A DNA stretch of 64,000 bases from Parcubacteria group bacterium Gr01-1014_17 (lineage in GTDB: Bacteria; Patescibacteriota; Minisyncoccia; Phycocordibacterales; UBA10002). Below, one piece after another: positions 3,700 to 43,201 of the stretch. Position 1 is the first letter of the stretch, and every line of letters starts with the position of its first letter. The notes under the pieces are model-generated. The model saw only the letters and a program-made list of their open reading frames with translations. It was not told the DNA's origin and did not search any database. Location of the stretch: positions 699-64,698 of the forward strand of contig VMFZ01000005.1 in NCBI GenBank assembly GCA_007376285.1, given 5' to 3'. The position numbers and the translations under genes are program-made.

Positions 3700-5901
3700 A
3701 TGCGGCTTCTGTTTATTACACAAGCGATTGATGAACGCGACCCTGTGCTCGGGTTTGTGTGTGGGTGGCTTCGCGCGTTTGCTATAGAATTTGAGCATAT
3801 ATCGTCAGTGTGTTTGCGAAAGGGCGGGTATGATTTACCGAAGAATGTATCAGTACATTCTCTCAAAGAGGGCGCCAAACAAACCGAACCAGATGTTGAT
3901 AGGCGGCAAACATCTGGTTCGGTTTCTCGACTGAGATATGTATTGCGTTTTTTGCGCTTTGTATGGCGCACACGTAATGAATACGACGCGGTGTTCGTGC
4001 ATATGAATCAGGAATATATCTTGCTTGCGGGTGTTTTGTGGCGATTGCTCGGAAAACCTGTGGCGCTTTGGTATAACCATACTGCGGGCGGAGTGTGGAC
4101 AAAAATTGCAATTCGCCTTGCGACCGTTGTATTTCACACCTCGCCATACGCGTTTACGGCTGGAACTAAAAAATCAATCCGTATGCCTGCCGGAATTAAT
4201 ACTCAACTTTTCTCTCTTGTTCATGAAATACAGAGGACACAGCATTCAATTTTATATTTAGGAAGAATCGCGCCGATTAAGGGAATAAGGGAAATAGTAC
4301 AGGCGGCTTTAATACTACGCGAACGCAATGAAGATTTTTCTTTAACGATATGCGGAGATGCGCTTCCGCGCGATGCGGCGTACGAAAAAGAAGTTCACGC
4401 GCTCGCGGAGCCGCTCGCGCGGAAGGGGAAGTGTCGTTTTTTGAATGCAATACCAAACTCTGATGCCCCGAACATTTTTTCAGCGCATGAGATTTTTGTA
4501 AACCTCACTCCTTCGGGCAATTACGATAAAACTGTGCTTGAGGCAGCGGCATGCGGCGCAATCCCCATCGTTTCATCGTCCGCGTTCCGCGATGCCTTTC
4601 CGCATGAATTGTTTTTTGAAGAACGAAATCCACAGTCGCTTGCGGATGCGATTGAACGGGTATTTGCACTATCGGACAAAAGAAAAGAAGAAATTAAAAC
4701 ACCACTAAGAAAATATGTCATAGAGACGCACGATTTGAGTTTACTGGTGAAGAAAGTGAAAAAAGTTCTTTCCGCTAAGCGTGTTTATTATGTTGCAAAC
4801 GCTCGCATACCGACAGAAAAGGCGCACGGGATTCAAATTGCAAAAATGAGCGAGGCGCTCCGCAAAATCGGCGCGGCTCTGACGCTTGTCGTTCCACGCC
4901 GTGGGAAGAAAGTGTTGCTCAAAGATTTCTACAATCTTACGGAAGAGGTTCCGCTCATCCGTCTACCATCATTCCCATACCGCGCGAGCTTTCTGCTCGG
5001 CTCACTTTCTTTTATGATTTCTGCGTTTCTGTTTCTTCTTGCGCGGAAAATCCGAGGAGAAAAATTTTTGGTGTACACCATAGATATGGATCAATTCTCT
5101 TTTTCGCTTATTCCGTTTTTGCGGGTGCCGTACTTTGTGGAGATTCACGACGCGAAACGACGCGGAATCTTGTTTCAACGGCTATTCAATCGCGCACAAG
5201 GCATTTTGACGATAAATAACATTATTAAAAATAAATTATGCGCGCGGTTTGTGATGCCGAGCGAAAAAGTGCTCGTTGCACCGAATGGTATTTCCGAAGA
5301 ATTTTTTAAAGCGAGAAATATCAGTGCGGATAAAGCGCGTGCCGTGCTCAATCTTCCGCTTAACAGAAAAATTGCGCTCTACGCAGGACAGTTTTACGCA
5401 TGGAAGGGTTTGGAAATCTTGGCGGAAGCGGCGCGCCGCGCGCCGGCAATTATATTTTACCTTGCGGGTGGGACGCGCGAAGCGTTTGAGCGCATCACCG
5501 ACATCCGCGATATTCCGGCAAATATATTGTTTGGCGGGGTGCGCCCTTATACAGAAATGCCGCTTCTCATGCGCGCGTCCGACGCACTTATCGTGCTCGG
5601 CACTAAACGCGATGAGTATTCATATTTTCACACATCGCCGATGAAACTATTTGAGTATTTGCCAGTCGGAAGACCGATTGTCGCGGCACGGACTCCAGCG
5701 ATTGTTGATATGGTTTCTGAAAAGGAGGTCTTTTTTTACGAACCAGACAATGCAGAAAGTATGGCTCAAGTGACGATGGAAGCTATATGCAATAAAACTT
5801 CCGCCAATGAAAAGGTCTCCGTGGCGCGCAAACTTGCGGAAAAATATACATGGAAAACCCGCGCCGAAGCCGTTCTTACGCTATTGGTGAATGCTGTATA
5901 A
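3700..5901 (+). CDS. Tandem double-domain glycosyltransferase (two GT4/GT-B modules, 733 aa)
   Basis: Two successive GT1-family domains, each with an EAAACG-like or LFEYLPVGRPIV-like C-terminal nucleotide-sugar binding motif (LEAAACGAIPIV at ~aa 280; KLFEYLPVGRPIVAA at ~aa 650). Confidence 0.65.
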   Translation: MRLLFITQAIDERDPVLGFVCGWLRAFAIEFEHISSVCLRKGGYDLPKNVSVHSLKEGAKQTEPDVDRRQTSGSVSRLRYVLRFLRFVWRTRNEYDAVFVHMNQEYILLAGVLWRLLGKPVALWYNHTAGGVWTKIAIRLATVVFHTSPYAFTAGTKKSIRMPAGINTQLFSLVHEIQRTQHSILYLGRIAPIKGIREIVQAALILRERNEDFSLTICGDALPRDAAYEKEVHALAEPLARKGKCRFLNAIPNSDAPNIFSAHEIFVNLTPSGNYDKTVLEAAACGAIPIVSSSAFRDAFPHELFFEERNPQSLADAIERVFALSDKRKEEIKTPLRKYVIETHDLSLLVKKVKKVLSAKRVYYVANARIPTEKAHGIQIAKMSEALRKIGAALTLVVPRRGKKVLLKDFYNLTEEVPLIRLPSFPYRASFLLGSLSFMISAFLFLLARKIRGEKFLVYTIDMDQFSFSLIPFLRVPYFVEIHDAKRRGILFQRLFNRAQGILTINNIIKNKLCARFVMPSEKVLVAPNGISEEFFKARNISADKARAVLNLPLNRKIALYAGQFYAWKGLEILAEAARRAPAIIFYLAGGTREAFERITDIRDIPANILFGGVRPYTEMPLLMRASDALIVLGTKRDEYSYFHTSPMKLFEYLPVGRPIVAARTPAIVDMVSEKEVFFYEPDNAESMAQVTMEAICNKTSANEKVSVARKLAEKYTWKTRAEAVLTLLVNAV
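3884..3922. repeat. 39 bp palindromic element (14 bp stem, 11 nt loop) inserted in-frame in the tandem-GT4 gene
   Basis: CCGAACCAGATGTT-GATAGGCGGCA-AACATCTGGTTCGG. It shares the GATGTT...GGCGGCA...AACATC core with the element at 103-135, and its length is a multiple of 3. It encodes EPDVDRRQTSGSV inside the N-terminal GT domain. Confidence 0.5.
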
Positions 5902-5908
5902 TCATCCT

Positions 5909-6580
5909 ATGAAGTCTTTACTTGGAATTGCGGATTTTTTTGGACTTACAAAAAAGATCATTCGCACGCGAATAGATGCTTTTTTGCAGAAACACGCGAC
6001 AAACGAGCGGACGCTTGATGTGGGGGGAGGTTCTGGGCCGTACAAAAAGTATTTTCCTAACCGCGTGTGCATTGATAACGAGGCGGGCGAGGGGGTTGAT
6101 TTCGTTGGCGACGCCCACGATTTATCGCGCTTCCGTGACGGAGAGTTTGAGTGCGTTCTTTGTACTGAAGTGTTGGAACACTTGCATACGCCGCAGAAAG
6201 CGATTGATGAAATGCGGCGAGTACTTAAACCTGGAGGCACCATCATTTTGACCACCCGTTTTATTTTTCCACTCCACAACATTCCTGGCGACTATTTCCG
6301 CTTTACACGCTACGGTCTCGCACATCTTTTTCGCGATTGGACGAAAGTAGAAATAAAAGAAGAAGGCACAACGATGGAGGCACTTGCGGTATTATCTGAA
6401 CGGATTGGATTCCAGACGGAAACATTTTGGACAAAATGGCTGTCTGTTGACTGGCTTATTTTGGCGAAAATTATCCCGTGGTTTTCATTTTTGATTACCA
6501 AGGAATACGGCGAGGTGGGACGCAAAAATGAAACAAAAAGTATTTTAACGAGCGGATATTTCGTGATTGCGAGAAAGTAG
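5909..6580 (+). CDS. Class I SAM-dependent methyltransferase (Methyltransf_11-like)
   Basis: LDVGGGSGPY...CTEVLEHL...LKPGGTIILTT motifs. The ORF track starts at 5891; ATG 5909 is preferred because the upstream gene stops at 5901. Confidence 0.6.
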   Translation: MKSLLGIADFFGLTKKIIRTRIDAFLQKHATNERTLDVGGGSGPYKKYFPNRVCIDNEAGEGVDFVGDAHDLSRFRDGEFECVLCTEVLEHLHTPQKAIDEMRRVLKPGGTIILTTRFIFPLHNIPGDYFRFTRYGLAHLFRDWTKVEIKEEGTTMEALAVLSERIGFQTETFWTKWLSVDWLILAKIIPWFSFLITKEYGEVGRKNETKSILTSGYFVIARK

Positions 6581-7732
6581 TATAAGTTCGTCGGCAACAC
6601 GCGCAACCATTTCTACAGTAATGTCTTCGCTTTGGCGGCGCGCTTCGCGCGCGTTGTACACAGTATTGTCCAAGATACCGAGCGCGGGCTTTTCGCGTGG
6701 TGCGGCGACCGTGCGGTGGAACTTTCCCTGCGGCGGCTGGATGTTTTCATACATCGGTCCTACGATGTCTATAGTTGGCGTGCCAAACGCTTCCGCAATA
6801 TAGACCGGTCCCGTGTCTGCGCTGATAAAAAGCGAAAACGAAGCAATGATCGCTTTTAATTCTTCCAATGAAAAGCGGTTGAGCGTATTAAGCGCGCTCG
6901 TTTCTTTTTTCACGGCACGCATCATTTTTTCTACTTCCTGCGCGTCACTGCCAACACCCAAAACGAGAATGCGCCCGCCGTGCTTTTGCGCAAGGTAGTC
7001 GGCAACTGCCGCAAACTTCTCCGGCGCCCATCGTTTGATGGGATCGCCGCCAACACCTGGCAAAATGCCGACTATCACATCTCGTTCTGGGGCAATATTT
7101 TGTTTCTCAAAGAAAGCGTTTACGCTTGCTTTCGCTTCTGCGGTATAGGTGAGCCGTTTGGTCGTATCGTCACTTTTAATACCGATGGGCTCAAGGAGCC
7201 GCAGATATTCGCGTGGCACATAACGCTCATTATAATGGGGAATTGCAATAACGGCGCGCAAAAGTTTTTTGTAAGTGCGCGTCTCGTAGGGAGAGTACCC
7301 ACCGACAATTTTCGGCGCGGCAATTGCTTTCACTCCGCCAGCGATAAGGAGCGTAAGGCCGTAAAGCGATGGCAACGGAAGCACGCCAAAGTCGGCGTGC
7401 TCGCGCGCGAGGACGCGCGCGGCGCTCCAAAAACTTTTTCCGATGACGATATACTTATCCACCTCCGGATGCCCGTGCAAAAGTTTTTGATTAACCGCAT
7501 CGCCTAACACCACAAGTCGCGCATGCGGGAAGCGCTTCTTAATCGCGTGAAAAAGAGGTGTCGTGCACACCATGTCGCCGAGTTTTGCTCCCTGCAGAAT
7601 AGCAATCTTACTGGGGTTTTTGGGCGCGCGTCTGCGCGCGCCGAAAAACACGACATGCGCCGATGCGAGTAGAAAAAGTCCAGCGTTTTTAAGCCGTTCA
7701 ATAACGGCGCGCCGCCATTTGCGAAATGTCAT
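6545..7732 (-). CDS. Glycosyltransferase family 9 (ADP-heptose:acceptor heptosyltransferase-like)
   Basis: KIAILQGAKLGDMVCTTPLFHAIKKRFPHARLVVLG N-terminal signature of the RfaF/WaaC/WaaQ family. C-terminal ADTGPVYIAEAFGTPT motif. Confidence 0.65.
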   Translation of the reverse strand: MTFRKWRRAVIERLKNAGLFLLASAHVVFFGARRRAPKNPSKIAILQGAKLGDMVCTTPLFHAIKKRFPHARLVVLGDAVNQKLLHGHPEVDKYIVIGKSFWSAARVLAREHADFGVLPLPSLYGLTLLIAGGVKAIAAPKIVGGYSPYETRTYKKLLRAVIAIPHYNERYVPREYLRLLEPIGIKSDDTTKRLTYTAEAKASVNAFFEKQNIAPERDVIVGILPGVGGDPIKRWAPEKFAAVADYLAQKHGGRILVLGVGSDAQEVEKMMRAVKKETSALNTLNRFSLEELKAIIASFSLFISADTGPVYIAEAFGTPTIDIVGPMYENIQPPQGKFHRTVAAPREKPALGILDNTVYNAREARRQSEDITVEMVARVADELILLSRNHEISAR

Positions 7733-7788
7733 AGTGTGTCGTATTATAACGCTTTAGCCAGCCCGTTTGTTTTCATAAAAAAGCGAAT
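7733..7788. promoter_or_regulatory. Divergent intergenic region between the GT9 gene (-) and the heptose module (+); presumed promoters
   Basis: 56 bp AT-rich spacer between divergent start codons. No motif could be verified. Confidence 0.25.
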
Positions 7789-8655
7789 ATGAAAGAGAAA
7801 ATAATCGTGTTGGGCGCTGACCATAACGGAGTTGCGGTAAAAGCCGTTATTAAAGAACTCCTGAGTAAACTCGGATTTATTCCTATTGACCTTGGTCCGC
7901 ACACTGAGAGCGAGAAAGTTGATTATACGGATTATGCGCAAATGCTTGGGCATATCGTCAATAATGGCGATTCAACGCGAGGGATTCTTGTTTGCGGAAC
8001 GGGCGTCGGTATGAGTATCGTTGCTAACCGCTTTCCAAATGTGCGCGCCGCACTCGCGCACAGCGCGGAGGTAGCGCAAAAGACACGCGAGCACAACGAT
8101 GCGAATGTATTGTGTCTCGGCGCATGGGTGAACTCGCTTCCCGAGAACTTGCGCATTGTTCGTGCATGGCTTAATACTGAGTTTGGCGAAGGCAGACATG
8201 TGCGGCGGGTGGAAAAAACAAAAGAGCACTCGCGCGATAAGATTGTTTTTACAAACGGAATTTTTGATATTTTGCACAAAGGGCATATTGAACTCTTTAA
8301 ATTTGCAAAATCCCTAGGCGGGCGGCTTATTGTCGGAATCAATTCAGACCGCACGACTAAGTTGCTTAAAGGGAAAGGCAGACCCATCAATTCCGCGCAA
8401 GAAAGAAAAGCCACACTTGAAACCATACAATACATTGACCAAGTCGTTGTTTTTGACGACACAAAAACAATCGGCATTATCCAAGATGTGAAGCCGGATA
8501 TTGTGGTAAAAGGCGGAGAATGGACTTCTGCGGAAGTGCGACGGCGCGACAAAATTCCAGAAAAGATAGAAGTGCGAGTTTGCCCTTTGGTAATGCAGTC
8601 GTCCGGAATTAAATATTCTTCAACCAATGTTATTGAAAAAATCAAAAACAGATAA
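7789..8655 (+). CDS. Fusion: RpiB/LacAB-family sugar-phosphate isomerase (N-terminal) plus heptose-1-phosphate adenylyltransferase (RfaE/HldE domain II-like cytidylyltransferase fold, C-terminal)
   Basis: N-terminus GADHNG...ILVCGTGVGMSIVANR...GEGRHVRRV matches RpiB. C-terminus IVFTNGIFDILHKGHIELFKFAKSLGGRLIVGINSDRTTKLLKGKGRPINSAQER...VKGGEW matches HldE domain II. Confidence 0.7.
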   Translation: MKEKIIVLGADHNGVAVKAVIKELLSKLGFIPIDLGPHTESEKVDYTDYAQMLGHIVNNGDSTRGILVCGTGVGMSIVANRFPNVRAALAHSAEVAQKTREHNDANVLCLGAWVNSLPENLRIVRAWLNTEFGEGRHVRRVEKTKEHSRDKIVFTNGIFDILHKGHIELFKFAKSLGGRLIVGINSDRTTKLLKGKGRPINSAQERKATLETIQYIDQVVVFDDTKTIGIIQDVKPDIVVKGGEWTSAEVRRRDKIPEKIEVRVCPLVMQSSGIKYSSTNVIEKIKNR

Positions 8656-11457: not shown

Positions 11458-12198
11458 ATGAAATTATTTCTTGATTCCGCAAATTTGGGAGAAATCAAAG
11501 AGGCGCTTGAAAGCGGGCTCATTTTAGGCATTACCACAAATCCGTCGCTTCTTTCAAAAGAGCCGAAAGGAAGCTACCTCACGCATATGAAAGACATCGT
11601 TTCGCTCCTTAAAAAAGACGGAAGAAATCTTTCTTTAAGCGTTGAAGTATTTTCCGAGAAGCCGGAGGAAATGTTCAAACAAGCCAGAGAATTTAAAAAA
11701 GCGCTGAAATACAAAAACTTAGCGATAAAGATTCCCGTCAATTATAAAGGGCAAAGTTATCTAGGTGTTGTTCGGCAGTTGAGCGATGAAGGTGTTATGG
11801 TAAATTGCACGGCGTGTATGACACCCCTCCAACTCTCTATGGCCGCCGCGGCAGGCGCACGATTCGTGAGTTTATTTTACAATCGCGTACGCGACGGGGC
11901 GAAAGACACAGAATATGAAGCAGTACGAAAAGAAATGCTGGAAAAGAAAGACATTGAGCAAGCCGATTTTGAACCGAATAATGTGCTCCGCGAGGCGCGC
12001 GCGCTTCTCGCGCCGTACCCCAAAGCGGAAATCATTGCCGGCAGTATTCGCTCGGTATTGGATATTAAAGAGGCGGGGCTTGCCGGCGCGCATATCGTGA
12101 CTGCATCTTTTAAGACGCTCAAAGCCGCGCTCACGCACTTCAAAACCGACCACGCCGTAGGTAATTTTCTGAACGATTTCAAGCAGTGGTGTGCGTAG
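11458..12198 (+). CDS. tal: Transaldolase / fructose-6-phosphate aldolase family (short TalC/MipB type)
   Basis: MKLFLDSANLGEIKEA...GITTNPSLL N-terminal signature. The ~245 aa length is typical of the short transaldolase subfamily. Confidence 0.7.
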   Translation: MKLFLDSANLGEIKEALESGLILGITTNPSLLSKEPKGSYLTHMKDIVSLLKKDGRNLSLSVEVFSEKPEEMFKQAREFKKALKYKNLAIKIPVNYKGQSYLGVVRQLSDEGVMVNCTACMTPLQLSMAAAAGARFVSLFYNRVRDGAKDTEYEAVRKEMLEKKDIEQADFEPNNVLREARALLAPYPKAEIIAGSIRSVLDIKEAGLAGAHIVTASFKTLKAALTHFKTDHAVGNFLNDFKQWCA

Positions 12199-33667: not shown

Positions 33668-35269
33668 TTGGAATATATGCTTCACAACTTCATTGTTTTC
33701 TTTGAGACCATTCTCTTTTTGTACATTTCGTATGTTGCAGGAAGGGCTTTCTTGCCGCGGCTCGGCGTCAAAGCGGTTTCCGGAATAGTGGTTGCGGTGC
33801 AGGCGGTTCTGCTCGGTTTGGGTATGTTCGCGCTCGCTGGTTTGGCGTTCGGACTCTTGGGGATATTCAATGCGGTAACGCTCTGGGCGTTTACGGCGAT
33901 GCTTGTGTTTGTCGCGCGAAAACAGATTCGGGCACACTTCTTATCGCTTACCATGGAAAACACGCGGCGCGTTTTCCATGCATTCCTCGGTTTGTTTAGG
34001 GAGAATACTTTTTTAAAAATACTGATTGCGGTATGGTTGGTTGCTAATTTTTCTCTCGCGTTCGTGCCGCTTACCGCGCACGACACCATAGATTACCATC
34101 TGCCCATTGTGCTGGACATTGTGGAAAAGGGGCGGACGGACTTTACGAGCGCGATTGAGCACTATAGTTTTACGCCCGTTCTCGCGGAGATTTTATACGC
34201 TGTGCCCGCCGTGCTGTTCAACGAAAAAACTGCTCCATTCGTCTTTCAGCCGCTACAGTATATGACGCTCCCGCTTTTTCTCGCGCTCGCGTACGGGTTT
34301 TTGCGGGATAAGCTCAAACGGCGCTGGCTCGCGCCGGCGGCGCTTCTCGCGGTGTTGGGCATGATGGCCCTCCAAAGAGAGGTTTTACACATGGGGTATG
34401 TGGACACCTTTGCGTTTTTATACGGATTTGCGGCGCTTTTCCCGCTTTTGGAATATGCGTCACAACAAAACGGAAACGCAAAACCGCATTTTTCGGAATT
34501 GATGTTTTCCGCCGTGATGCTCGGGATTTCGCTCGGTATGAAATATTTCGGTTTTTTCTTCGGCGTATTCGCCATTGTGTTTCTGGTCGTCGCATGGAGG
34601 CGTTTCTCTATAACGGCGCATGAAATGGGGCGAATGCTTTTTATATTCTGCGCGATTGTCGCGGCTATTTCCTTATTTTGGTACGCCAAGAATTGGTTCT
34701 GGTTCGACAATCCGCTGTACCCGATGTTTTCATCCGACCCTGCGATTGCGATAACTCAGCAAGGTATTAAGTCGTTTCTGCTTGACCGAACATTTTTGAA
34801 TTTTTTTATTTTCCCCTTTGCGCTTTTCGGTCAATGGTTTTTGAATCCCGCGGTAGAGAGTTCAAGCAATCTGGTGATTTTTGCGTATTTTGTATTGCTG
34901 TATCTGCTTGTCGCTCCGCGGATTTTCACGCGCGAGAAGTTTACGCGCGCGGAAGTATTGCTGTTTGTGTTCGTGCATGGCTATCTCGCATTCCACTTCG
35001 TACTCTCGCATTACCTCCGCTACCTCTTGCCGTCGGTGATGATTTTACCTGTGCTCCTTGCGCTTCTCGCGGACAGGCTCTTCTCTACCGCGGAACGCGC
35101 GCTTTCCGCGCTGCGGTTTTCTGTACTTCACAAAACCGCTCACCTCATTGTGGCGCTCGCTATTTTGGTTGTGTTTCTCGGAAACTTCCATTATTTCCAA
35201 ATTCGTTTTTCCTATATTTTAGGTATTTATAATGAACAAGAATATGTACGAAAAATCGGAAGCCAATAA
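33668..35269 (+). CDS. GT-C-fold integral membrane glycosyltransferase (ArnT/PMT/GT39-83-like)
   Basis: 533 aa with about 13 predicted TM helices and no soluble catalytic domain. Immediately followed by a GtrB-like GT2. Confidence 0.5.
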   Translation: MEYMLHNFIVFFETILFLYISYVAGRAFLPRLGVKAVSGIVVAVQAVLLGLGMFALAGLAFGLLGIFNAVTLWAFTAMLVFVARKQIRAHFLSLTMENTRRVFHAFLGLFRENTFLKILIAVWLVANFSLAFVPLTAHDTIDYHLPIVLDIVEKGRTDFTSAIEHYSFTPVLAEILYAVPAVLFNEKTAPFVFQPLQYMTLPLFLALAYGFLRDKLKRRWLAPAALLAVLGMMALQREVLHMGYVDTFAFLYGFAALFPLLEYASQQNGNAKPHFSELMFSAVMLGISLGMKYFGFFFGVFAIVFLVVAWRRFSITAHEMGRMLFIFCAIVAAISLFWYAKNWFWFDNPLYPMFSSDPAIAITQQGIKSFLLDRTFLNFFIFPFALFGQWFLNPAVESSSNLVIFAYFVLLYLLVAPRIFTREKFTRAEVLLFVFVHGYLAFHFVLSHYLRYLLPSVMILPVLLALLADRLFSTAERALSALRFSVLHKTAHLIVALAILVVFLGNFHYFQIRFSYILGIYNEQEYVRKIGSQ

Positions 35270-36032
35270 AAGAAACAGCGTCGTGGTGATTATGCCTGCG
35301 TATAATGCGGCTCGGACTTTGGAGAAAACATATAGGGCGATTCCGTATGGCGCGGTGGATGAAATTATTCTGGTAGACGATGCAAGCCGCGATGATACTC
35401 TCGCGGTCGCACACACGCTCCCTATCCGTGTGTTCAAGCACAAGCGCAATTACGGATACGGCGCGAACCAAAAGACCTGCTACACCGAAGCGCTTAAAAC
35501 AGACAACGATATTATCGTTATGCTTCATCCCGATTATCAGTACGACCCGTCGCTTTTACCGACGCTTATTGCGCCCATTGCGGAGGGCCGCTCGGACATC
35601 GTGCTGGGCTCACGGCTTATGGGGAAGAGCCCTGTTGCGCAGGGAATGCCGTGGTGGAAATACCTCGGCAATCGACTCCTCACTCGTTTAGAAAATATCG
35701 TGTTTGGTTTGCATTTATCCGAATATCATACCGGTTATCGCGCGTACGCGCGCCGCGTGCTTGAGGAGGTGCATTATGAAATGAATTCGGATAAGTTTGT
35801 GTTTGACCAAGAGTTTATCGCGCAGGCGGTGTGCAACAAGTACCGGATTGTGGAAGTGCCCGTGCCGACAAAATATTTTCCGGAAGCATCGTCTGCGAGT
35901 TTCCGCGCCAGCGTCGTGTACGGTTTTTCTATTTTGTTTCTGTTGGCGCGCTACCTTCTCCATCGGAATGGGTGGGTGTGTTCTATGCAGTTTGAGAGCT
36001 TGCCGAGGCGATATAAAACGGCGGTTCGTTAA
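35232..36032 (+). CDS. GT2 polyprenyl-phosphate sugar synthase (GtrB/Dpm1-like) with C-terminal TM helix
   Basis: VVIMPAYNAARTL...VDDASRDDT...YGYGANQK. C-terminal FSILFLLARYLL hydrophobic segment. Confidence 0.7.
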   Translation: MNKNMYEKSEANKRNSVVVIMPAYNAARTLEKTYRAIPYGAVDEIILVDDASRDDTLAVAHTLPIRVFKHKRNYGYGANQKTCYTEALKTDNDIIVMLHPDYQYDPSLLPTLIAPIAEGRSDIVLGSRLMGKSPVAQGMPWWKYLGNRLLTRLENIVFGLHLSEYHTGYRAYARRVLEEVHYEMNSDKFVFDQEFIAQAVCNKYRIVEVPVPTKYFPEASSASFRASVVYGFSILFLLARYLLHRNGWVCSMQFESLPRRYKTAVR

Positions 36033-36851
36033 CATATTCCGCTGTTTAGCATTAAGCCACGGCCGTATCTTATTGCTAAATGCGCACATACACTATCTTT
36101 AACGGTCGTCAGAGATAGTGTATCCAAGTATTTTGCAAAATACTGAAATAGAAAAATAAACATTTTTTACGATTTTGCGCTTTGGTTTTTTGCGATAAAG
36201 TGGTATTATTTTTTGTATGAATCTCATTGTAAAACGAATCTTTACCTGTTTTGTTATTTTACTAATTCTTTATTATGCTGTGATTTTATTGCTTACACCA
36301 CCAAAGGAATCGTGGCCAGTTTTCTCTCTTAAAACTGGGGAATTTAAATGTTGGACCTAAGGGTATCGAGAAAAATCTAGTTTTGAAAGACGTCTATTCA
36401 ACAATGGAAACGCTTTTAAGAAAATTTGATGGATGTTACTTTGATTTGACAGATATGAACTACTCAATTAACACCTCATTAAACAGAGAGAAACTTGTAG
36501 TCGAACCAAATGAATATGTTAATCTTTCTAACGAACGCGAGTTTGTTTTTCCAGTAAGACTTGATGGTTTGAGCCGGATTTTTATTCTGCTTCAGATTCT
36601 ATTTGTTGGATTACCTTTGGTATTGTTAGTCTTCAAAACCATCATCAAGTTTGTTATTAAAGGTAGAGACTTTTTTATAAAATAATTTATGAATCTATCC
36701 AACAACGAAAAACTGGATGTCTACGAGTTGGTCTGACATTCCTACATTCCTAGGAAAGTAGGAATATCAGCACATTGGGACATTCTTATATTTCTAGTGT
36801 ATCGTACAATGTGGCACAGTTCTTCACAATAAAACAACAAGAAAGGCGGCT
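36033..36851. other. AT-rich non-coding stretch at the start of a lower-GC island
   Basis: A visibly lower GC content than the flanking genes. Contains a hairpin CACTATCT...AGATAGTG (~36095-36125). No long ORF. Confidence 0.4.
36404..36685 (+). CDS. Small hypothetical protein with a C-terminal TM segment
   Basis: The track ORF 36383-36685 uses a TTG start; ATG 36404 is preferred. C-terminal hydrophobic segment IFILLQILFVGLPLVLLVF. Low-GC codon usage. Confidence 0.25.
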   Translation: METLLRKFDGCYFDLTDMNYSINTSLNREKLVVEPNEYVNLSNEREFVFPVRLDGLSRIFILLQILFVGLPLVLLVFKTIIKFVIKGRDFFIK

Positions 36852-37643
36852 ATGGTCAAAAGACAAGAAACGCGGTATCTCATTTCCCGAAGCGAGCAAA
36901 GCATCTTTTCCGAAATCTACTTCCCCAAAAGAGCGGCGTACTATGGCACTATCTTTGATGCCTTGCGTAAAGGTTATAAAGAGGATGTCGTTAAAAAATA
37001 CATGGACACTAATGCGCCGGTTCTCCTTGAAGAGTACCAAGCATATCCTGCACTCTTTGACCCAGATGACTACACAAAAGCACGGAGAGTAACAGAGCCA
37101 GTCTCAGTTGAGAAAGCGCGCGAACGCATCAAAATGTACCAATCCCCATTTAAAGGTTGGTCAACTTATAGCGTAGACGGTGTCTTTTTTGATAAAAAGA
37201 ACAAAATGTACGAGGAAGCGGTCCAAGTAGTGCGCATTATGTTCCGCTTCCAGAGTTCTTTCGCTCTCGTAGCAGAAAAGGAGGGATGCAGTGATGTATT
37301 GCGATGCATGCTGGTATGGCTTGCTACCCGCCAAGGACGGTTGGCTGGCCACAAAATATGGTTTGAGAGCGAGAAACGGCTTTTCGTCACAAACCAGCCG
37401 CCTTTTCCGAAACGCAAGCGCGCTTTTGTAGAACAGCACTTCGCTAGCATCGCCAGAGAAGTGAATAAATGGATTGACGACCGCGGGCTTTTCACCTTTG
37501 CGTATTTGGTCCATAAGTTTGCAGAAAATGTGCTTGCCGAGCAACTGTACGAAAAAGAGATTTGGGCGACCAATCTTTTTAATCAAAACCTCATTATAAC
37601 GAGCCGTGTTGAAAACGGCGAAAATCACATAACGCAGAAATGA
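36852..37643 (+). CDS. Hypothetical protein (263 aa), no recognisable domain
   Basis: Clean ATG-to-stop ORF inside the low-GC island. No motif recognised. Confidence 0.4.
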   Translation: MVKRQETRYLISRSEQSIFSEIYFPKRAAYYGTIFDALRKGYKEDVVKKYMDTNAPVLLEEYQAYPALFDPDDYTKARRVTEPVSVEKARERIKMYQSPFKGWSTYSVDGVFFDKKNKMYEEAVQVVRIMFRFQSSFALVAEKEGCSDVLRCMLVWLATRQGRLAGHKIWFESEKRLFVTNQPPFPKRKRAFVEQHFASIAREVNKWIDDRGLFTFAYLVHKFAENVLAEQLYEKEIWATNLFNQNLIITSRVENGENHITQK

Positions 37644-37655
37644 AAGGAAAAATAA

Positions 37656-37997
37656 ATGAAAGAAAGTAAGATTCATCCAAAAGTCACGGAACTCTTGCAA
37701 GAAGTATTCGGTTGGTTTAACGAAGATGAAGGCGAGCGAGCCGGAAAATATCCAGAAGTTTATCTCGTGTCTTTGTTAGAAAATATCAAAGAGGAATTGC
37801 CCGAAGTATCAGCGATGCTCTATTCAGCGGTTGATATGGCAAGATTCGGTCCTGATGTAAAAGGATTCAGATTCGGTCCCGCGACAGAAAGATTCCAAAA
37901 GATATTATCTGTCGTTCAACCAAATGAGAAAGTACCATCTCATAAAATGGGAAAGAAATCTCTAAAACGCCGACATTTGCAAAAAATTGCCGCGTAA
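37656..37997 (+). CDS. Hypothetical acidic protein (113 aa) with a basic C-terminal tail
   Basis: Begins 13 bp after the previous ORF. Ends KKSLKRRHLQKIAA. Followed by a terminator. Confidence 0.35.
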   Translation: MKESKIHPKVTELLQEVFGWFNEDEGERAGKYPEVYLVSLLENIKEELPEVSAMLYSAVDMARFGPDVKGFRFGPATERFQKILSVVQPNEKVPSHKMGKKSLKRRHLQKIAA

Positions 37998-38015
37998 CTT
38001 CTTGTTGTGTTCTCG

Positions 38016-38048
38016 CAAGCCCCGTTCAAATGGACGGGGCTTTTCTGT
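38016..38048 (+). terminator. Rho-independent terminator (AGCCCCGT-loop-ACGGGGCT followed by TTTTCT)
   Basis: An 8 bp GC-rich stem with a T-tract, directly after the island's last ORF. Confidence 0.55.
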
Positions 38049-38063
38049 ACTATATGGTAATAT

Positions 38064-39428
38064 TTGTCGGCGCGGCGATATCTTTTCTTTTTCCCGAATT
38101 GCGTCGGCGACCAATTGCAGAAAATTGCCGCGGCGCGGAATGATATACGCATCGTCTTTTTGGTTCTGAAAAAGGATTACGAACGCTACAAGCTGTTTCT
38201 GACTCGATTTCCCAGTGAACGCGTTATTGTGGAATCAGTATTACTTTCTTTCCAGAGAACTTTTTTTCAGAAGATTGTCCGCTTTTTTTATTCGTACCTT
38301 CTCTATACCAACACGACGCGTATTCTCGCAACGATGGGTATGCGCCCAGGCGAACCTCCCGCGGGAGGCAATCGTTTTATGGCGCCGCTCAAATGGCTCA
38401 TCGCGAACTCATTTGGGCGTTCGCGTTTTGTGCGTTTGAAAGTCGCGCCCTTTTTGCATTATCTCGCATTCAAGGACAGGCCGCTCGCTCCGTTGTTTGA
38501 GAAATACCGTCCCGATGCGGTATTTCTCTCCAGCATGTACGACCGTTTTGAAACACAAGTTATTCCGGAAGCAAAACGCCGCGGCATAAGAACCATCGCC
38601 ATGCCCGCGAGTTGGGACCATGTGGACAAATATTATTTGCCGTTCCATGCGGATATATTCGTGGCGCACAGCGAGCAGATAAAGCGCGCGGCAATCCGTT
38701 TCCAAAGTTATGCGCCCGAGTCCATCGTCGTGACTGGTTACCCGCATTTTGATTTTTTGGCGAGCAGAGAGTCGGTGCTTTCGCGCGAAGATACGCTCAA
38801 GGATCTCAACTTGCCGGCGGACTCACGCTACATTTTGTACGTGTCGGGAAGCGCGTATTGCCCCGATGAGCCGGACATTGTGGCTGAAATGTTGAAGTGG
38901 GTTGACGCTGGCGCGTTCGGCGAGAACACTTATATTGTTTTGCGACCGTACCTCGGTTCGCGAAGCAAAGATAAGGATTTTGACGCAGAAAAATATACGC
39001 GCCTATCGGAACATCCGCGCCTGCGCGTATTTGACAAGCGCGGCGTTGAAAAATTAGACGAGTCGGTGCTCTATCTCAATGTGATGCGGCATTCCGCAAT
39101 GGTGCTTGCTGTGTACAGCACGGTGTTTTTGGAATCAGTTGTGTTTGACCGCCCGCTCGTTGCGGCGCCATTTGACGGGTGGAATACGCGGCCGCTGTAC
39201 CGCTCAATACGGCGTTTTGAAGGATTTGAGCATTTTAAGGATGTTGCAGCGATCGGCGCGATTCGCGCGGCGCGCTCTTTTCCGGAATTGAAAAAAGTTA
39301 TTTCGGATTATCTTGCACATCCTGAACGGGATGCGGAAAAGCGTGAGAAAATGCGTCGCGAAATTTGTTGGAAGCTGGACGGTCGTTCTAGTGAACGATT
39401 AGTGAATCTTATTTTGGAAAATCTGTGA
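38064..39428 (+). CDS. TagF-like GT-B transferase, paralog 2 of 5
   Basis: ASWDHVDKY...VTGYPHFD...ILYVSGSAY...VYSTVFLESVVFDRPLVAAPFD...LDGRSSERL blocks shared with the other paralogs. Apparent TTG start. Confidence 0.4.
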   Translation: MSARRYLFFFPNCVGDQLQKIAAARNDIRIVFLVLKKDYERYKLFLTRFPSERVIVESVLLSFQRTFFQKIVRFFYSYLLYTNTTRILATMGMRPGEPPAGGNRFMAPLKWLIANSFGRSRFVRLKVAPFLHYLAFKDRPLAPLFEKYRPDAVFLSSMYDRFETQVIPEAKRRGIRTIAMPASWDHVDKYYLPFHADIFVAHSEQIKRAAIRFQSYAPESIVVTGYPHFDFLASRESVLSREDTLKDLNLPADSRYILYVSGSAYCPDEPDIVAEMLKWVDAGAFGENTYIVLRPYLGSRSKDKDFDAEKYTRLSEHPRLRVFDKRGVEKLDESVLYLNVMRHSAMVLAVYSTVFLESVVFDRPLVAAPFDGWNTRPLYRSIRRFEGFEHFKDVAAIGAIRAARSFPELKKVISDYLAHPERDAEKREKMRREICWKLDGRSSERLVNLILENL

Positions 39429-40772: not shown

Positions 40773-42566
40773 ATGAACATTTTAGGCCTTAAAATTAAAC
40801 AACATGACACGGGTGCCGCGCTTATTGCCGGCAATCGCGTGGTCGCGATTGCCGAGGAACGGTTGAATCGCGTGAAGCATTCCCGCGATATGTTTCCAAA
40901 TCTCTCCATTGAGTATTGCTTGAACACACTCTGCGTGCGGCCGGAGGAGGTGGATTTAGTGGTACTGGATCAAGTCGGCTCGCATACGAAGCGCCCCTCT
41001 GAAGTTGTTTTTAAGCGAAATGGAGGAGGGCGGTTTACAAAAGCGCGCGTTGAAACCATCAACCATCATGATGCGCACGCGGCGGCGGCTTTTTTCTGTT
41101 CCCCGTTTCTGGAGGCAGGCATATTGATTGTAGACGGCGTCGGAGAGACTCTTCGCGATAATTTGGGGGCGCTCGGCACGGAAACGGAAACCATCTACCG
41201 CGGAGATGAAAATCATCTCGTCATGCTTCAAAAAACCCGCCACCTGCGTGAAATGCTTGGATTTCCCTATACGACCGGCATCGGAAAACTCTACTCATTT
41301 ATTTCAGATGGATACCTTAACTTCGGCGATTACAACGAAGGCAAAATGATGGGTTTGGCGCCCTATGGAGACGGTAGAATTTTGGAAAAGTATCCGCTTT
41401 CGCGCTGGTTTCGCATAGACGCGGAAGGTAGGGTTTTGTGCAACCCGCTCATTTCGTTCGCGGGGCGCGAAGAGTCGAAAGGATTTCGCCAGAAATCATA
41501 TCCGCAGGGTTGGCTGCGATGGTTTCTGAATGAAGCGCTACGGAAAACCGCATACGGGTTGTTTCGCGCCGCATACCGCAGGCGCGAGCCGTCTTTAACG
41601 GAACCAATTTTGTTTGATGAGATTCATTTGCGCAAGCCGCGGCGGAAAGCCGAAACGCTTCCGGAGCCGTATTACGCCGCGGCGGCATACGCGGTACAAA
41701 AGGTGTTGGAAGAGGTAATGGTAGTATGGGGGAAACGGATCAAATCTATGACAGGCGTAGATAATCTATGCCTCGCCGGAGGAGTCGGTTTGAACATTGA
41801 CGCGAATCGAAGGTTCCTGGAGGATGTCGGCTTCAAAAAGCTTTTTGTTCAACCAGCAGCATCCGACACCGGCATTGCGCTTGGGTGCGCGTTGTGGGGC
41901 GCACACCAGATTTTGAGATTGCCCCGTTTTTATGAAATGAAAAGCGCATCGCTCGGTAAAACCTATTTGGAAACAGACATCACCAACGCGCTTGAAAAAT
42001 ACAAAGACAAAATTACGGCGCGCCGTTCGAACGACTTTGCGAGCGATGCCGCAAAGTTAATTGCGAGCGGCAAAATTATCGGCTGGTTTCAGGGCGGGAG
42101 CGAATACGGGCCACGCGCGCTCGGCAACCGCTCTATCATTGGTGATGCCCGCAATCCTGAAATGGCGAACATCATTAACAAAAAAGTGAAGCACCGCGAG
42201 CCGTGGCGGCCATTCGCGGCAAGTGTTCTTGCTGAGAAGCAACGCGAATGGTTTGAGTTGGAACACCCAAGCCCGTTTATGCTTCTTGCCGCGCCGGTGA
42301 TGAAAGAGAAGCGCGCGCTCGTTCCTTCGATTGTGCATATAGATGGGAGTTGCCGTATTCAATCCGTAACAGCGGAAGCAAACGAGCCGTATTATGCATT
42401 GCTTAAAGTGTTTGAAAAAGAGACCGGCGTACCGCTCGTTCTCAATACTTCTTTCAACGACGCGGGCGAACCCATTGTGGAGACGCCCGAAGATGCACTC
42501 CGGTGTTTTTTGAATACGGAAATGGACGCGCTCGTACTTCACAATTGGATTGTAGAGAAGAAGTAA
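40773..42566 (+). CDS. Carbamoyltransferase (NodU/CmcH family)
   Basis: ILGLKIKQHDTGAALI...HHDAHAAAAFF N-domain and the C-terminal Carbam_trans_C region (GPRALGNRSI...HIDGSCRIQ). Confidence 0.8.
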   Translation: MNILGLKIKQHDTGAALIAGNRVVAIAEERLNRVKHSRDMFPNLSIEYCLNTLCVRPEEVDLVVLDQVGSHTKRPSEVVFKRNGGGRFTKARVETINHHDAHAAAAFFCSPFLEAGILIVDGVGETLRDNLGALGTETETIYRGDENHLVMLQKTRHLREMLGFPYTTGIGKLYSFISDGYLNFGDYNEGKMMGLAPYGDGRILEKYPLSRWFRIDAEGRVLCNPLISFAGREESKGFRQKSYPQGWLRWFLNEALRKTAYGLFRAAYRRREPSLTEPILFDEIHLRKPRRKAETLPEPYYAAAAYAVQKVLEEVMVVWGKRIKSMTGVDNLCLAGGVGLNIDANRRFLEDVGFKKLFVQPAASDTGIALGCALWGAHQILRLPRFYEMKSASLGKTYLETDITNALEKYKDKITARRSNDFASDAAKLIASGKIIGWFQGGSEYGPRALGNRSIIGDARNPEMANIINKKVKHREPWRPFAASVLAEKQREWFELEHPSPFMLLAAPVMKEKRALVPSIVHIDGSCRIQSVTAEANEPYYALLKVFEKETGVPLVLNTSFNDAGEPIVETPEDALRCFLNTEMDALVLHNWIVEKK

Positions 42567-42568
42567 TT

Positions 42569-43201
42569 ATGCAGAATATACACTACGGTGTGTTACAGTG
42601 TTACGGTATGAAAAAACCACATTGGTCATGTTGGCGACATCTCAATTATTTATTTTACCAACAGCACCTTTCTGGTTTGCGTGGCACCCTGCTTGATGTC
42701 GGAGTCGGGAAGAGGCACCTCAAAAATTTATTCACTGGTTTTAATTATAAGGGAGTTGATTGGGCGGGAGATGCCGATGTGTTATGTGATTTGAATGCGG
42801 AGTGGCCGTTTCAGAAAGAAAAATTTGATGTCATCATTTGCTCAAACACGCTGGAACATATAAAAAATCCTCATTTTCTCGCCGAGAATATGCTCAAGAG
42901 CTTACGCGGCACTCTATTAGGTACGGTTCCTTATATTACAAAATTACATCAAGAACCGCATGATTATTTCCGTTATACGCCCTACGCGCTTATGGATCTT
43001 TTAGAAGGCGTGAAAATATATCCTCTTGGGAGCGCCATAGACGCGCTTCACTTGATACGGAAAAAAGTCGCTCATGACATGCAGCCGATTTTTAAAAACA
43101 GATTATGGCATTTTGTTAATAAATTGACTGATAGGATAGAACCGAAACTTGATCCTTCTTGGCAAATGCCGTTGGGATATTGGTTTATGGTTAAAAAGTA
43201 A
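42569..43201 (+). CDS. Class I SAM-dependent methyltransferase
   Basis: LLDVGVGKRHL...ICSNTLEHIKNP motifs. The track start at 42503 overlaps the upstream gene, so ATG 42569 is preferred. Confidence 0.55.
   Translation: MQNIHYGVLQCYGMKKPHWSCWRHLNYLFYQQHLSGLRGTLLDVGVGKRHLKNLFTGFNYKGVDWAGDADVLCDLNAEWPFQKEKFDVIICSNTLEHIKNPHFLAENMLKSLRGTLLGTVPYITKLHQEPHDYFRYTPYALMDLLEGVKIYPLGSAIDALHLIRKKVAHDMQPIFKNRLWHFVNKLTDRIEPKLDPSWQMPLGYWFMVKK

Follow-up and report, generated by a model that had tools for sequence, protein, structure and literature searches.

What is the stretch of about 2 kb that lies between a GT2 (GtrB-like) glycosyltransferase gene and a TagF-like gene in the glycan locus of Parcubacteria group bacterium Gr01-1014_17? 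We analyzed it within 64,000 nucleotides of contig VMFZ01000005.1 (this whole stretch is called the window below). Between the two flanking genes, the window contains three open reading frames (ORFs) of 93, 263 and 113 amino acids, here named ORF93, ORF263 and ORF113, and a strong terminator. All of these had been recognized in an earlier note, made from the letters alone, which grouped them as one island of low guanine-plus-cytosine (GC) content and suggested that it was horizontally acquired. The flanks, the ORFs and the terminator were confirmed (Table 1), but the single island was not. Instead, a strain-specific low-GC segment of about 0.65 kb is followed by a separate, conserved cassette of near-normal GC content, the ORF263-ORF113 gene pair. 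Our confidence in this regional anatomy, a variable slot plus an operon, is high. For the function of the gene pair, a toxin-antitoxin (TA)-like accessory, or conflict, module was ranked first, with a probability of only about 0.35 for that mechanism.

The base composition was quantified in 600-bp windows over the 64 kb (mean 47.3% GC, standard deviation 3.4), and individual genes were scored against the 60 genes of the window. The minimum of the entire window, 31.2%, was found in the 600-bp window starting at position 36101. The 819-bp spacer between the GT2 gene and ORF263 (36033-36851) has a GC content of 33.5% and ORF93 one of 31.2%, values that correspond to a z score of about -4.5. In contrast, ORF263 is normal (45.6%, z -0.4), and ORF113 is mildly low and thus marginal (40.1%, z -1.9). 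Because the low GC content is limited to the spacer and ORF93, the compositional island comprises about 0.65-0.8 kb and not 2 kb. Nor do 820 bp of non-coding DNA precede the three ORFs, as had been assumed, since the spacer contains ORF93 as well as an ORF of 47 aa. Other low-GC stretches of the glycan region (about 39-42%) are found around positions 12000, 16000, 42500 and 58000, for example at 42600-43200 and in the gene at 42503-43201 (40.1%).

About 85 related loci (labeled L001 and onwards) were compared with the window. Locus L009 is syntenic with it: the genes for a 633-aa protein, a 533-aa protein and the GT2 glycosyltransferase (74-86% identical) are followed by a variable segment, ORF263 (82%), ORF113 and the TagF-like gene (90%). 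In the gap that separates GT2 from the cassette, the window and L009 share only two pieces of DNA, a hairpin just downstream of the GT2 stop codon and the final approximately 165 nt. This hairpin (RNA fold of -15.5 kcal/mol, z -2.5) is unique within the window and is kept at the same place in L009. The gap in L009 has a length of 2.25 kb (31-39% GC) and contains an unrelated 2.0-kb low-GC segment (5813-7833) with genes for a 404-aa Cys-rich protein with a signal peptide, a secreted Tyr/Arg-rich protein of about 75 aa and a 121-aa membrane protein. The strain-specific segment of the window had no DNA or protein match among the approximately 85 related loci, and the small ORFs upstream of the cassette showed no similarity between any of the loci compared. 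The gap is a hypervariable AT-rich slot, bordered by the post-GT2 hairpin and the upstream region of the cassette. Because the upstream ORFs are unrelated between loci, spacer and cassette do not form one element.

Within the slot, ORF93 has a hydrophobic helix near its C-terminus (residues 59-77), the transmembrane tail of the earlier note, and it has no relative in any of the fetched related loci. It is annotated in NCBI (G01um101417_313), and its 90% identity cluster consists of itself and the same DNA with TGA read as a sense codon. Of the dinucleotide-shuffled versions of the spacer, 2.9% contain an ORF of 100 codons. Taken together, ORF93 is probably a real, strain-specific gene. A 136-aa version (P0286, window positions 36267-36685), derived from an ENA contig with the in-frame TGA read as Trp, is most likely a genetic-code artefact of the gene caller and not a real variant. 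The 47-aa ORF has no homologue in the related loci and is missing from the protein collection, and within the window neither it nor ORF93 has a paralogue.

The conserved unit begins directly downstream of the slot. ORF263 and ORF113, identical to G01um101417_314 and G01um101417_315 of the same bacterium, are separated by 12 nt, and over about 30 loci from the Candidate Phyla Radiation (CPR) the spacing ranges from a 4-nt overlap to about 36 nt. The upstream region is 72% identical to that of L009 across 165 nt, and over its final 30-50 nt the identity with L010 and L011 is 84-97%. It contains a palindrome (fold of -18.9 kcal/mol, z -3.0), and hairpins of other sequence are found at the same position, 80-120 nt upstream, in L009, L001, L013 and L014. 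The palindrome may be a terminator or insulator, or an operator; as an operator candidate it is placed upstream of the promoter, is not conserved in sequence and is terminator-like in some relatives (L013, L014). Next to it lies a TG-extended -35/-10-like pair, which in the upstream alignment coincides with TTGCAT/TTGCTA ... TATTAT of the relatives; as a consensus promoter scan did not call it, the promoter is regarded as putative. The C/A-rich leader GTTCTTCACAAnAAAACAACAAGAAAGG, which carries the Shine-Dalgarno motif and is followed by the ATG, is nearly invariant across the window, L009, L010, L011, L075 and L085, and no stable fold was found for it (z -0.2).

At the other end, a hairpin with a T-run follows about 10-40 nt past the stop codon of the small gene in most of the 21 cassettes checked. 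In the closest subclade, the last approximately 14 codons of the small gene, a motif in the 3' untranslated region (UTR), CTTCTTGTTGTGTTC, and the terminator are kept at the DNA level. The shared leader and promoter region and the conserved 3' UTR and terminators therefore identify the pair as an insulated bicistronic operon. In the window, positions 36689-38046 constitute this self-contained unit, comprising hairpin, putative promoter, leader, ORF263, ORF113, 3' UTR and terminator.

A further observation concerns the two untranslated ends. The leader segment AAAACAACAAGAA (36831-36843) is complementary at 12 of 13 positions to TTCTTGTTGTGTT of the 3' UTR (37999-38011), and both are conserved in the closest subclade. 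Across loci, the leader-3' UTR duplex energies were not significant against shuffles, and one possible compensatory change was found, in L013 only. A search of the region against Rfam yielded only a chance microRNA match (E 0.8), and no tRNA or tmRNA was found in the window. In type III TA systems, the toxin gene is preceded by tandem RNA repeats; upstream of the cassette there are only two loose 19-nt repeats, which are not conserved in relatives, and this type was rejected.

Lack of homology, the second argument for an orphan island, applies to ORF93 but not to the cassette. In a collection of 5.8 billion proteins, 123 homologues of ORF263 were found (35-83% identity), all unnamed and without Pfam domains. 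A profile search of 1.84 billion representatives of 50% identity clusters enlarged the family to 320 clusters, mostly of 215-310 aa besides fragments and without evident domain fusions. The family is sparse, as a scan of 185,579 GTDB species genomes gave 66 loci, many of them in CPR lineages. Within the CPR it occurs in Parcubacteria, Peregrinibacteria, Staskawicz-, Taylor-, Lipton- and Giovannonibacteria, and homologues with 22-45% identity outside the CPR belong to Gemmataceae, other Planctomycetes, Acidobacteriota, Chloroflexia, Desulfobacterales, Microseira and Bacteroidetes. The databases also contain 17-33 homologues of ORF113, most of them in CPR or unnamed bins. A jackhmmer search over the ORFs of the fetched loci recovered 34 ORFs next to ORF263 homologues, and a homologous small ORF directly follows the large gene in about 30 CPR loci. 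That recognizable domains are lacking holds for Pfam, NCBIfam, PADLOC and PHROGs, in which none of the four window ORFs had a match, and neither ORF263 nor ORF113 matched the PDB by sequence or by fold.

The AlphaFold model of ORF263, based on an alignment of 43 sequences, had a mean predicted local distance difference test (pLDDT) score of 88.6 and a predicted template modeling (TM) score of 0.85. It contains three beta-hairpins (residues 7-25, 100-132 and 238-254) with helices between them, among them one of 43 residues (187-229). Foldseek found no match to the model in the PDB (best E 0.017, TM-score at most 0.16), and in BFVD a weak, partial similarity to uncharacterized phage proteins of about 112 aa (A0A5Q2UAG1, A0A127AVL0; probability 0.99, TM-score 0.19-0.25). 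Residues E21, Y23, P25, K26, G102, S104, Y106, V108, G110, E122, Q125, W207, F214, E234, E236 and W238 are kept family-wide, and D109 and R128 in most members; in the model, the conserved residues are mostly predicted on or next to the beta-hairpins. Residues from about 133 to 200 form an insert limited to the clade of the CPR plus Gemmataceae.

Several candidate relationships of ORF263 were discarded. A PDB profile match to a gasdermin (fungal RCD-1-2; E 0.1 over one strand) vanished with the wider family profile, Foldseek found no gasdermin in the PDB, and the long hairpin is charged and the most conserved part of the protein. Matches to the Pfam family Spherulin4/GH135 were below threshold and limited to 6 of 43 members, and the model is not a TIM barrel. 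DUF3574 was matched below threshold by three distant members only (best E 0.002), and by ORF263 itself not at all. The DUF3574 and BFVD matches may correspond to the conserved beta-hairpin, and none of them reaches significance at the level of the whole family. Finally, the conserved residues do not appear to fit the PD-(D/E)xK, Pol-beta NTase, ART or CYTH motifs.

The small partner is organized differently. The model of ORF113 (overall pLDDT 71.8) has five helices, a core modeled with confidence and a basic tail that is predicted to be disordered, and the cores of the small partners are acidic (pI about 5). Its Lys/Arg-rich tail, KKSLKRRHLQKIAA, ends with HLQKIAA at the free carboxyl end, and the partners have the endings IAA, VAA, AAA, VSA, VGA or ASA. 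L011 and L013 encode an unrelated partner of 122-126 aa; these two proteins share 64% identity and match the standard partner profile with E of about 1. Both partner types share the tail ...K(R/K)RHxEK[VIA][ASG]A as well as the 3' UTR and the terminator. The tail is kept at the protein level across the two unrelated cores, with synonymous changes in the DNA, while the partners in more distant CPR cassettes are entirely without it. The large proteins of L011 and L013 are just 57% identical, and the nearest relatives of each (76-81%) carry the standard partner. The same tail on unrelated cores, next to diverged large proteins, therefore indicates that the partner was replaced at least twice and that the tail was kept. 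An independent feature of ORF113 is a 27-nt tandem duplication (37842-37895, copies 74% identical), which yields the 9-aa repeat RFGPDVKGF/RFGPATERF; the aligned homologues do not have the extra copy.

What could the tail be for? Flynn and colleagues reportedly described in 2003 two C-terminal signals for ClpX, C-motif 1 '...LAA' (ssrA) and C-motif 2 '...RRKKAI' (MuA). The partner tail is similar to these by sequence only, as it is basic and has a hydrophobic residue, then Ala, Ser or Gly, and a terminal Ala. It thus resembles a ClpX-type degron, and alternatively it could bind nucleic acid or the large protein.

Six genomes contain two loci each, and most of the paralogue pairs examined have diverged and belong to different subclades of the neighbor-joining tree. 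In two loci, a second, inverted cassette is located about 5 kb from the main copy (L020, 3078-3659, minus strand; L022, 2120-2663, minus strand). In both, the large gene has been cut to about 30 matching residues, whereas the small gene is intact but divergent, about 45% identical to the partner of the main copy as judged by eye from the alignment. L029 has an inverted small gene alone upstream. In total, about one sixth of the CPR copies are disrupted: the large gene is truncated at the N-terminus in L020, contains an in-frame TAG in L033, is frameshifted in L036, L041 and L044, and is fragmented in L042. In L020, L036, L041 and L044, an intact small gene sits beside the broken large gene.

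These features underlie the TA-like reading: the pair is patchy in its distribution, multi-copy and variable in position, its large genes have frequently decayed and small genes are orphaned, and partners have been swapped; moreover, the small partner is acidic and has a disordered ssrA/ClpX-like tail. ORF263 would be the effector, a cytoplasmic alpha/beta protein of a new family, with the conserved polar residues E21, K26, S104, Y106, D109, E122, Q125, R128, E234 and E236 predicted on or next to the beta-hairpins. ORF113, with its acidic helical core and Lys/Arg-rich tail, would be the cognate neutralizer of ORF263, and the tail would make it labile. A TA-type module, one of the suggestions of the earlier note, is thus the best-supported guess at a function, on circumstantial evidence. 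That the pair represents a new class of two-gene conflict module widespread in CPR/Patescibacteria, with an effector fold absent from the PDB and interchangeable partners that share an ssrA-like degron, is a bolder proposal and appears doubtful to us; in it, pairing of leader and 3' UTR might add translational control.

Several results weigh against a TA-like function. No toxin, antitoxin or defense model of Pfam, NCBIfam, PADLOC or PHROGs matched the window proteins or the family alignments, and profile and PDB searches recognized no helix-turn-helix (HTH), ribbon-helix-helix or AbrB domain in ORF113. The tail is a putative degron, proposed from its sequence. Some of the frameshifts may be assembly errors of metagenome-assembled genomes, and the break in L011 is a run of N, i.e. 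an assembly gap. Searches of 50,697 phage records, of 72,556 plasmids and of IMG/VR yielded no relative. In most of the family (non-CPR members and Gemmataceae) the gene is intact and solitary, without a detectable small partner, and some solitary homologues occupy conserved housekeeping positions; a growth-arresting toxin should not persist alone. The strong conservation of ORF263, about 50% identity between CPR phyla, would also suit an ordinary enzyme.

The last points lead to an alternative that is possible and nearly as likely, namely that ORF263 is a benign accessory enzyme or binding protein, solitary in many phyla, which gained a small regulatory, chaperone or targeting subunit in the CPR. 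The solitary, intact homologues, syntenically stable in some lineages, fit such a protein, the conserved polar residues resemble a catalytic or ligand site, no library gave a defense or TA signature, and the identity of ORF263 to its L009 counterpart equals that of the flanking genes. However, a benign enzyme leaves unexplained that small genes persist beside destroyed large genes, that the partner core was repeatedly replaced while the tail was kept, that genomes of about 1 Mb harbor divergent second copies, and that about one sixth of the CPR copies are disrupted.

The genomic contexts of the family bear on both remaining explanations. As ORF263 is 82% identical to L009, like the flanks (84-90%), the cassette has been inherited in this lineage and was not recently acquired; in this respect the proposed horizontal acquisition does not hold. 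The synteny comparison, as suggested in the earlier note, did reveal variable presence, and the cassette is not kept in one context by all relatives: the cassette-TagF junction of the window and L009 is kept in L011, the cassette of L010 has another position in the homologous glycan locus, L001-3, L075-77 and L081-85 have it in other contexts, and in L079 the TagF orthologue (77%) and the downstream operon are present, but the 6 kb upstream contain no cassette. The position of the cassette thus varies among relatives, and the spacer content is found in this genome only. Among CPR cassettes, neighbors are glycan or envelope genes in about 40% of distinct loci, many from one subclade, and otherwise genes for ComEC, PheRS/ZIP, a histidine kinase, dihydroorotate dehydrogenase (DHODH), ribonucleotide reductase (RNR), Asn synthase, SMC, DnaE or an integrase-family protein, or tRNA clusters. 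Non-CPR homologues are solitary: they occur as ArgRS-X-TrpRS (L051, L053), in a PilS-X-PilR-like arrangement (L056) or beside unrelated genes, and in Planctomycetaceae after an aldehyde dehydrogenase gene. Many of them (L049, L052, L057, L061, L065/66, L074) have GC contents 7-19 points below their loci and look like single-gene insertions between housekeeping genes. Cassettes are located within tRNA clusters in L005, L019 and L027 and beside genes for the aminoacyl-tRNA synthetases PheRS, ArgRS or TrpRS elsewhere; this proximity is about at chance level by our estimate, and a functional link was rejected.

Could the pair serve the glycan locus itself, as a locus regulator in the manner of UpxY/UpxZ or as a novel modifier of the surface polymer made by GT2 and TagF? 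Glycan or envelope genes at most two genes away from the cassette, as seen in the window, L002, L004, L005, L007, L009, L010, L011, L020, L021, L075-77, L083 and L085, together with the conserved cassette-TagF junction, point in this direction. We nevertheless consider such a role improbable: many of these loci come from one close subclade, other cassettes adjoin ComEC, PheRS, RNR, DnaE, SMC or tRNA genes, in most loci checked the cassette ends in a terminator of its own, which insulates it, non-CPR homologues have no glycan context, and the TagF operon of L079 exists without it. Furthermore, Pfam and NCBIfam searches of ORF263 and ORF113 revealed no glycosyltransferase, polymerase or glycan-modification domain, and no NusG/KOW or HTH domain was found.

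Slightly less probable still is a mobile-element or phage remnant, or a new abortive-infection or defense pair, acquired horizontally together with the low-GC spacer. Such an origin would fit the hypervariable low-GC segment directly upstream in the window, L009 and L001, the cassettes in tRNA clusters or beside an integrase-family gene (L005, L019, L027, L006), the far lower GC content of many distant homologues (in L049 0.40 versus 0.59 for the locus) and the best, albeit weak, fold matches in BFVD, which are small phage proteins. It is contradicted by the absence of relatives from the phage, plasmid and IMG/VR collections and by the chance-level tRNA proximity. In PADLOC-DB 2.0 the four window ORFs had no match at E up to 10, and 36 family members gave single chance-level matches only; PHROGs gave none. 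The cassettes are not in defense islands or mobile elements, their neighbors being glycan, housekeeping and tRNA genes, and in the window no integrase or transposase ORF is near the cassette. A search of the window for ends of a mobile element revealed no convincing flanking direct or terminal repeats. The phage-derived or defense origin considered in the earlier note was therefore not supported.

Table 1. Features between and including the two flanking genes, in window coordinates.
Feature	Position	Strand	Remarks
GT2 glycosyltransferase gene, left flank	35232..36032	+	PF00535, E 4e-23; L009 orthologue 84% identical
Hairpin/palindrome just 3' of GT2 stop, left edge of variable slot	36045..36080	+	18-nt arms
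AT-rich strain-specific segment, hypervariable slot	36086..36688	.	31% GC
47-aa ORF, doubtful gene	36217..36360	+	one hydrophobic helix
ORF93, probably real	36404..36685	+	orphan tail-anchored small membrane protein
Conserved upstream region of the ORF263-ORF113 cassette	36689..36851	+	
Palindrome upstream of putative promoter	36733..36770	+	19-nt arms
Putative promoter, TG-extended	36777..36810	+	GGGACA, 17 nt, TATCGT
C/A-rich 5' leader with Shine-Dalgarno motif	36819..36851	+	
ORF263, large protein of an undescribed family	36852..37643	+	alpha/beta, three beta-hairpins and 43-residue helix (model)
ORF113, small partner	37656..37997	+	acidic helical core and basic disordered tail (model)
Segment coding for the C-terminal tail	37953..37997	+	common to two unrelated partner types
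Conserved 3' UTR motif	37998..38017	+	complementary to leader
Intrinsic terminator, hairpin 38018-38041 and T-run	38018..38046	+	10-bp stem, dG -22 kcal/mol, z -4.7 versus shuffles
TagF-like gene, right flank	38064..39428	+	PF04464, E 3e-11; 5'-truncated by 73-bp deletion (alignment with L009, L011)

Additional observations were made at the borders of the region. Relative to L009 (9160-9250) and L011 (2000-2090), the window has a 73-bp deletion at 38046-38064, directly after the cassette terminator. It removes the ribosome-binding region, the start codon and about the first 14 codons (MKTLFxTVPSxA) of the TagF-like gene, the ORF of which now starts with TTG, 18 nt past the terminator. Because of this 5' deletion and the TTG start so close to the terminator, the TagF-like gene of the window may be impaired or a pseudogene. 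A 21-nt direct repeat (19 of 21 identical) flanks the terminator at 37974-37994 and 38112-38132; the first copy encodes the ORF113 end HLQKIAA and the second QLQKIAAA near the start of the TagF-like protein. As each peptide motif is conserved independently in its own family, the repeat may be due to chance or to local gene conversion. On the other side, just upstream of the GT2 gene, positions 33668-35269 encode a 533-aa multi-pass membrane protein without a Pfam match (86% identical in L009), which is an unannotated member of the glycan locus.

The consequences depend on which reading is true. One hypothesis holds that classical defense and TA systems are largely missing from bacteria with reduced genomes, among them the CPR (PMC12455944). 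If the TA-like reading is correct, conflict modules do persist in CPR genomes of about 1 Mb, and a new family is added to the repertoire. If ORF263 is an ordinary enzyme, it still represents an unannotated family of about 320 clusters in at least six phyla, and its confident structure model makes it a tractable target for functional work. In either case, these episymbionts have, between the GT2 gene and the cassette, a hypervariable slot that accommodates small secreted or membrane proteins.

Three known systems invite comparison with the cassette. The complementarity of leader and 3' UTR recalls the control of hok mRNA by fold-back of its 5' and 3' ends, with the pairing in the cassette as a candidate only. 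UpxY of Bacteroides is a NusG-like (KOW) antiterminator that is co-transcribed with its capsular polysaccharide locus. Similar to UpxY/UpxZ, the cassette pairs a large with a small gene, is repeatedly found where surface-glycan loci begin or end, and is present more than once in some genomes; in contrast to them, it has no NusG/KOW domain, a terminator separates it from the glycan genes, and many copies are found outside of glycan loci.

The third comparison is with type II TA operons, in some of which the toxin gene comes first, e.g. HigBA, HicAB and MqsRA. The cassette differs from them in that its proteins have no sequence or fold relation to known toxins or antitoxins, that the partner has no recognizable DNA-binding domain, that the large protein, with 263 aa, exceeds typical toxins in size and in conservation, and that most non-CPR members are solitary. 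Toxicity, binding and lability are putative properties of the cassette proteins, proposed from sequences and models. The similarities are the following: two small adjacent and probably co-translated genes form an autonomous unit with the larger gene first, the distribution is sporadic and multi-copy with variable positions, decayed large genes stand beside intact small genes, and the small partner is of a mix-and-match type, acidic, and has a disordered tail as a possible protease tag.

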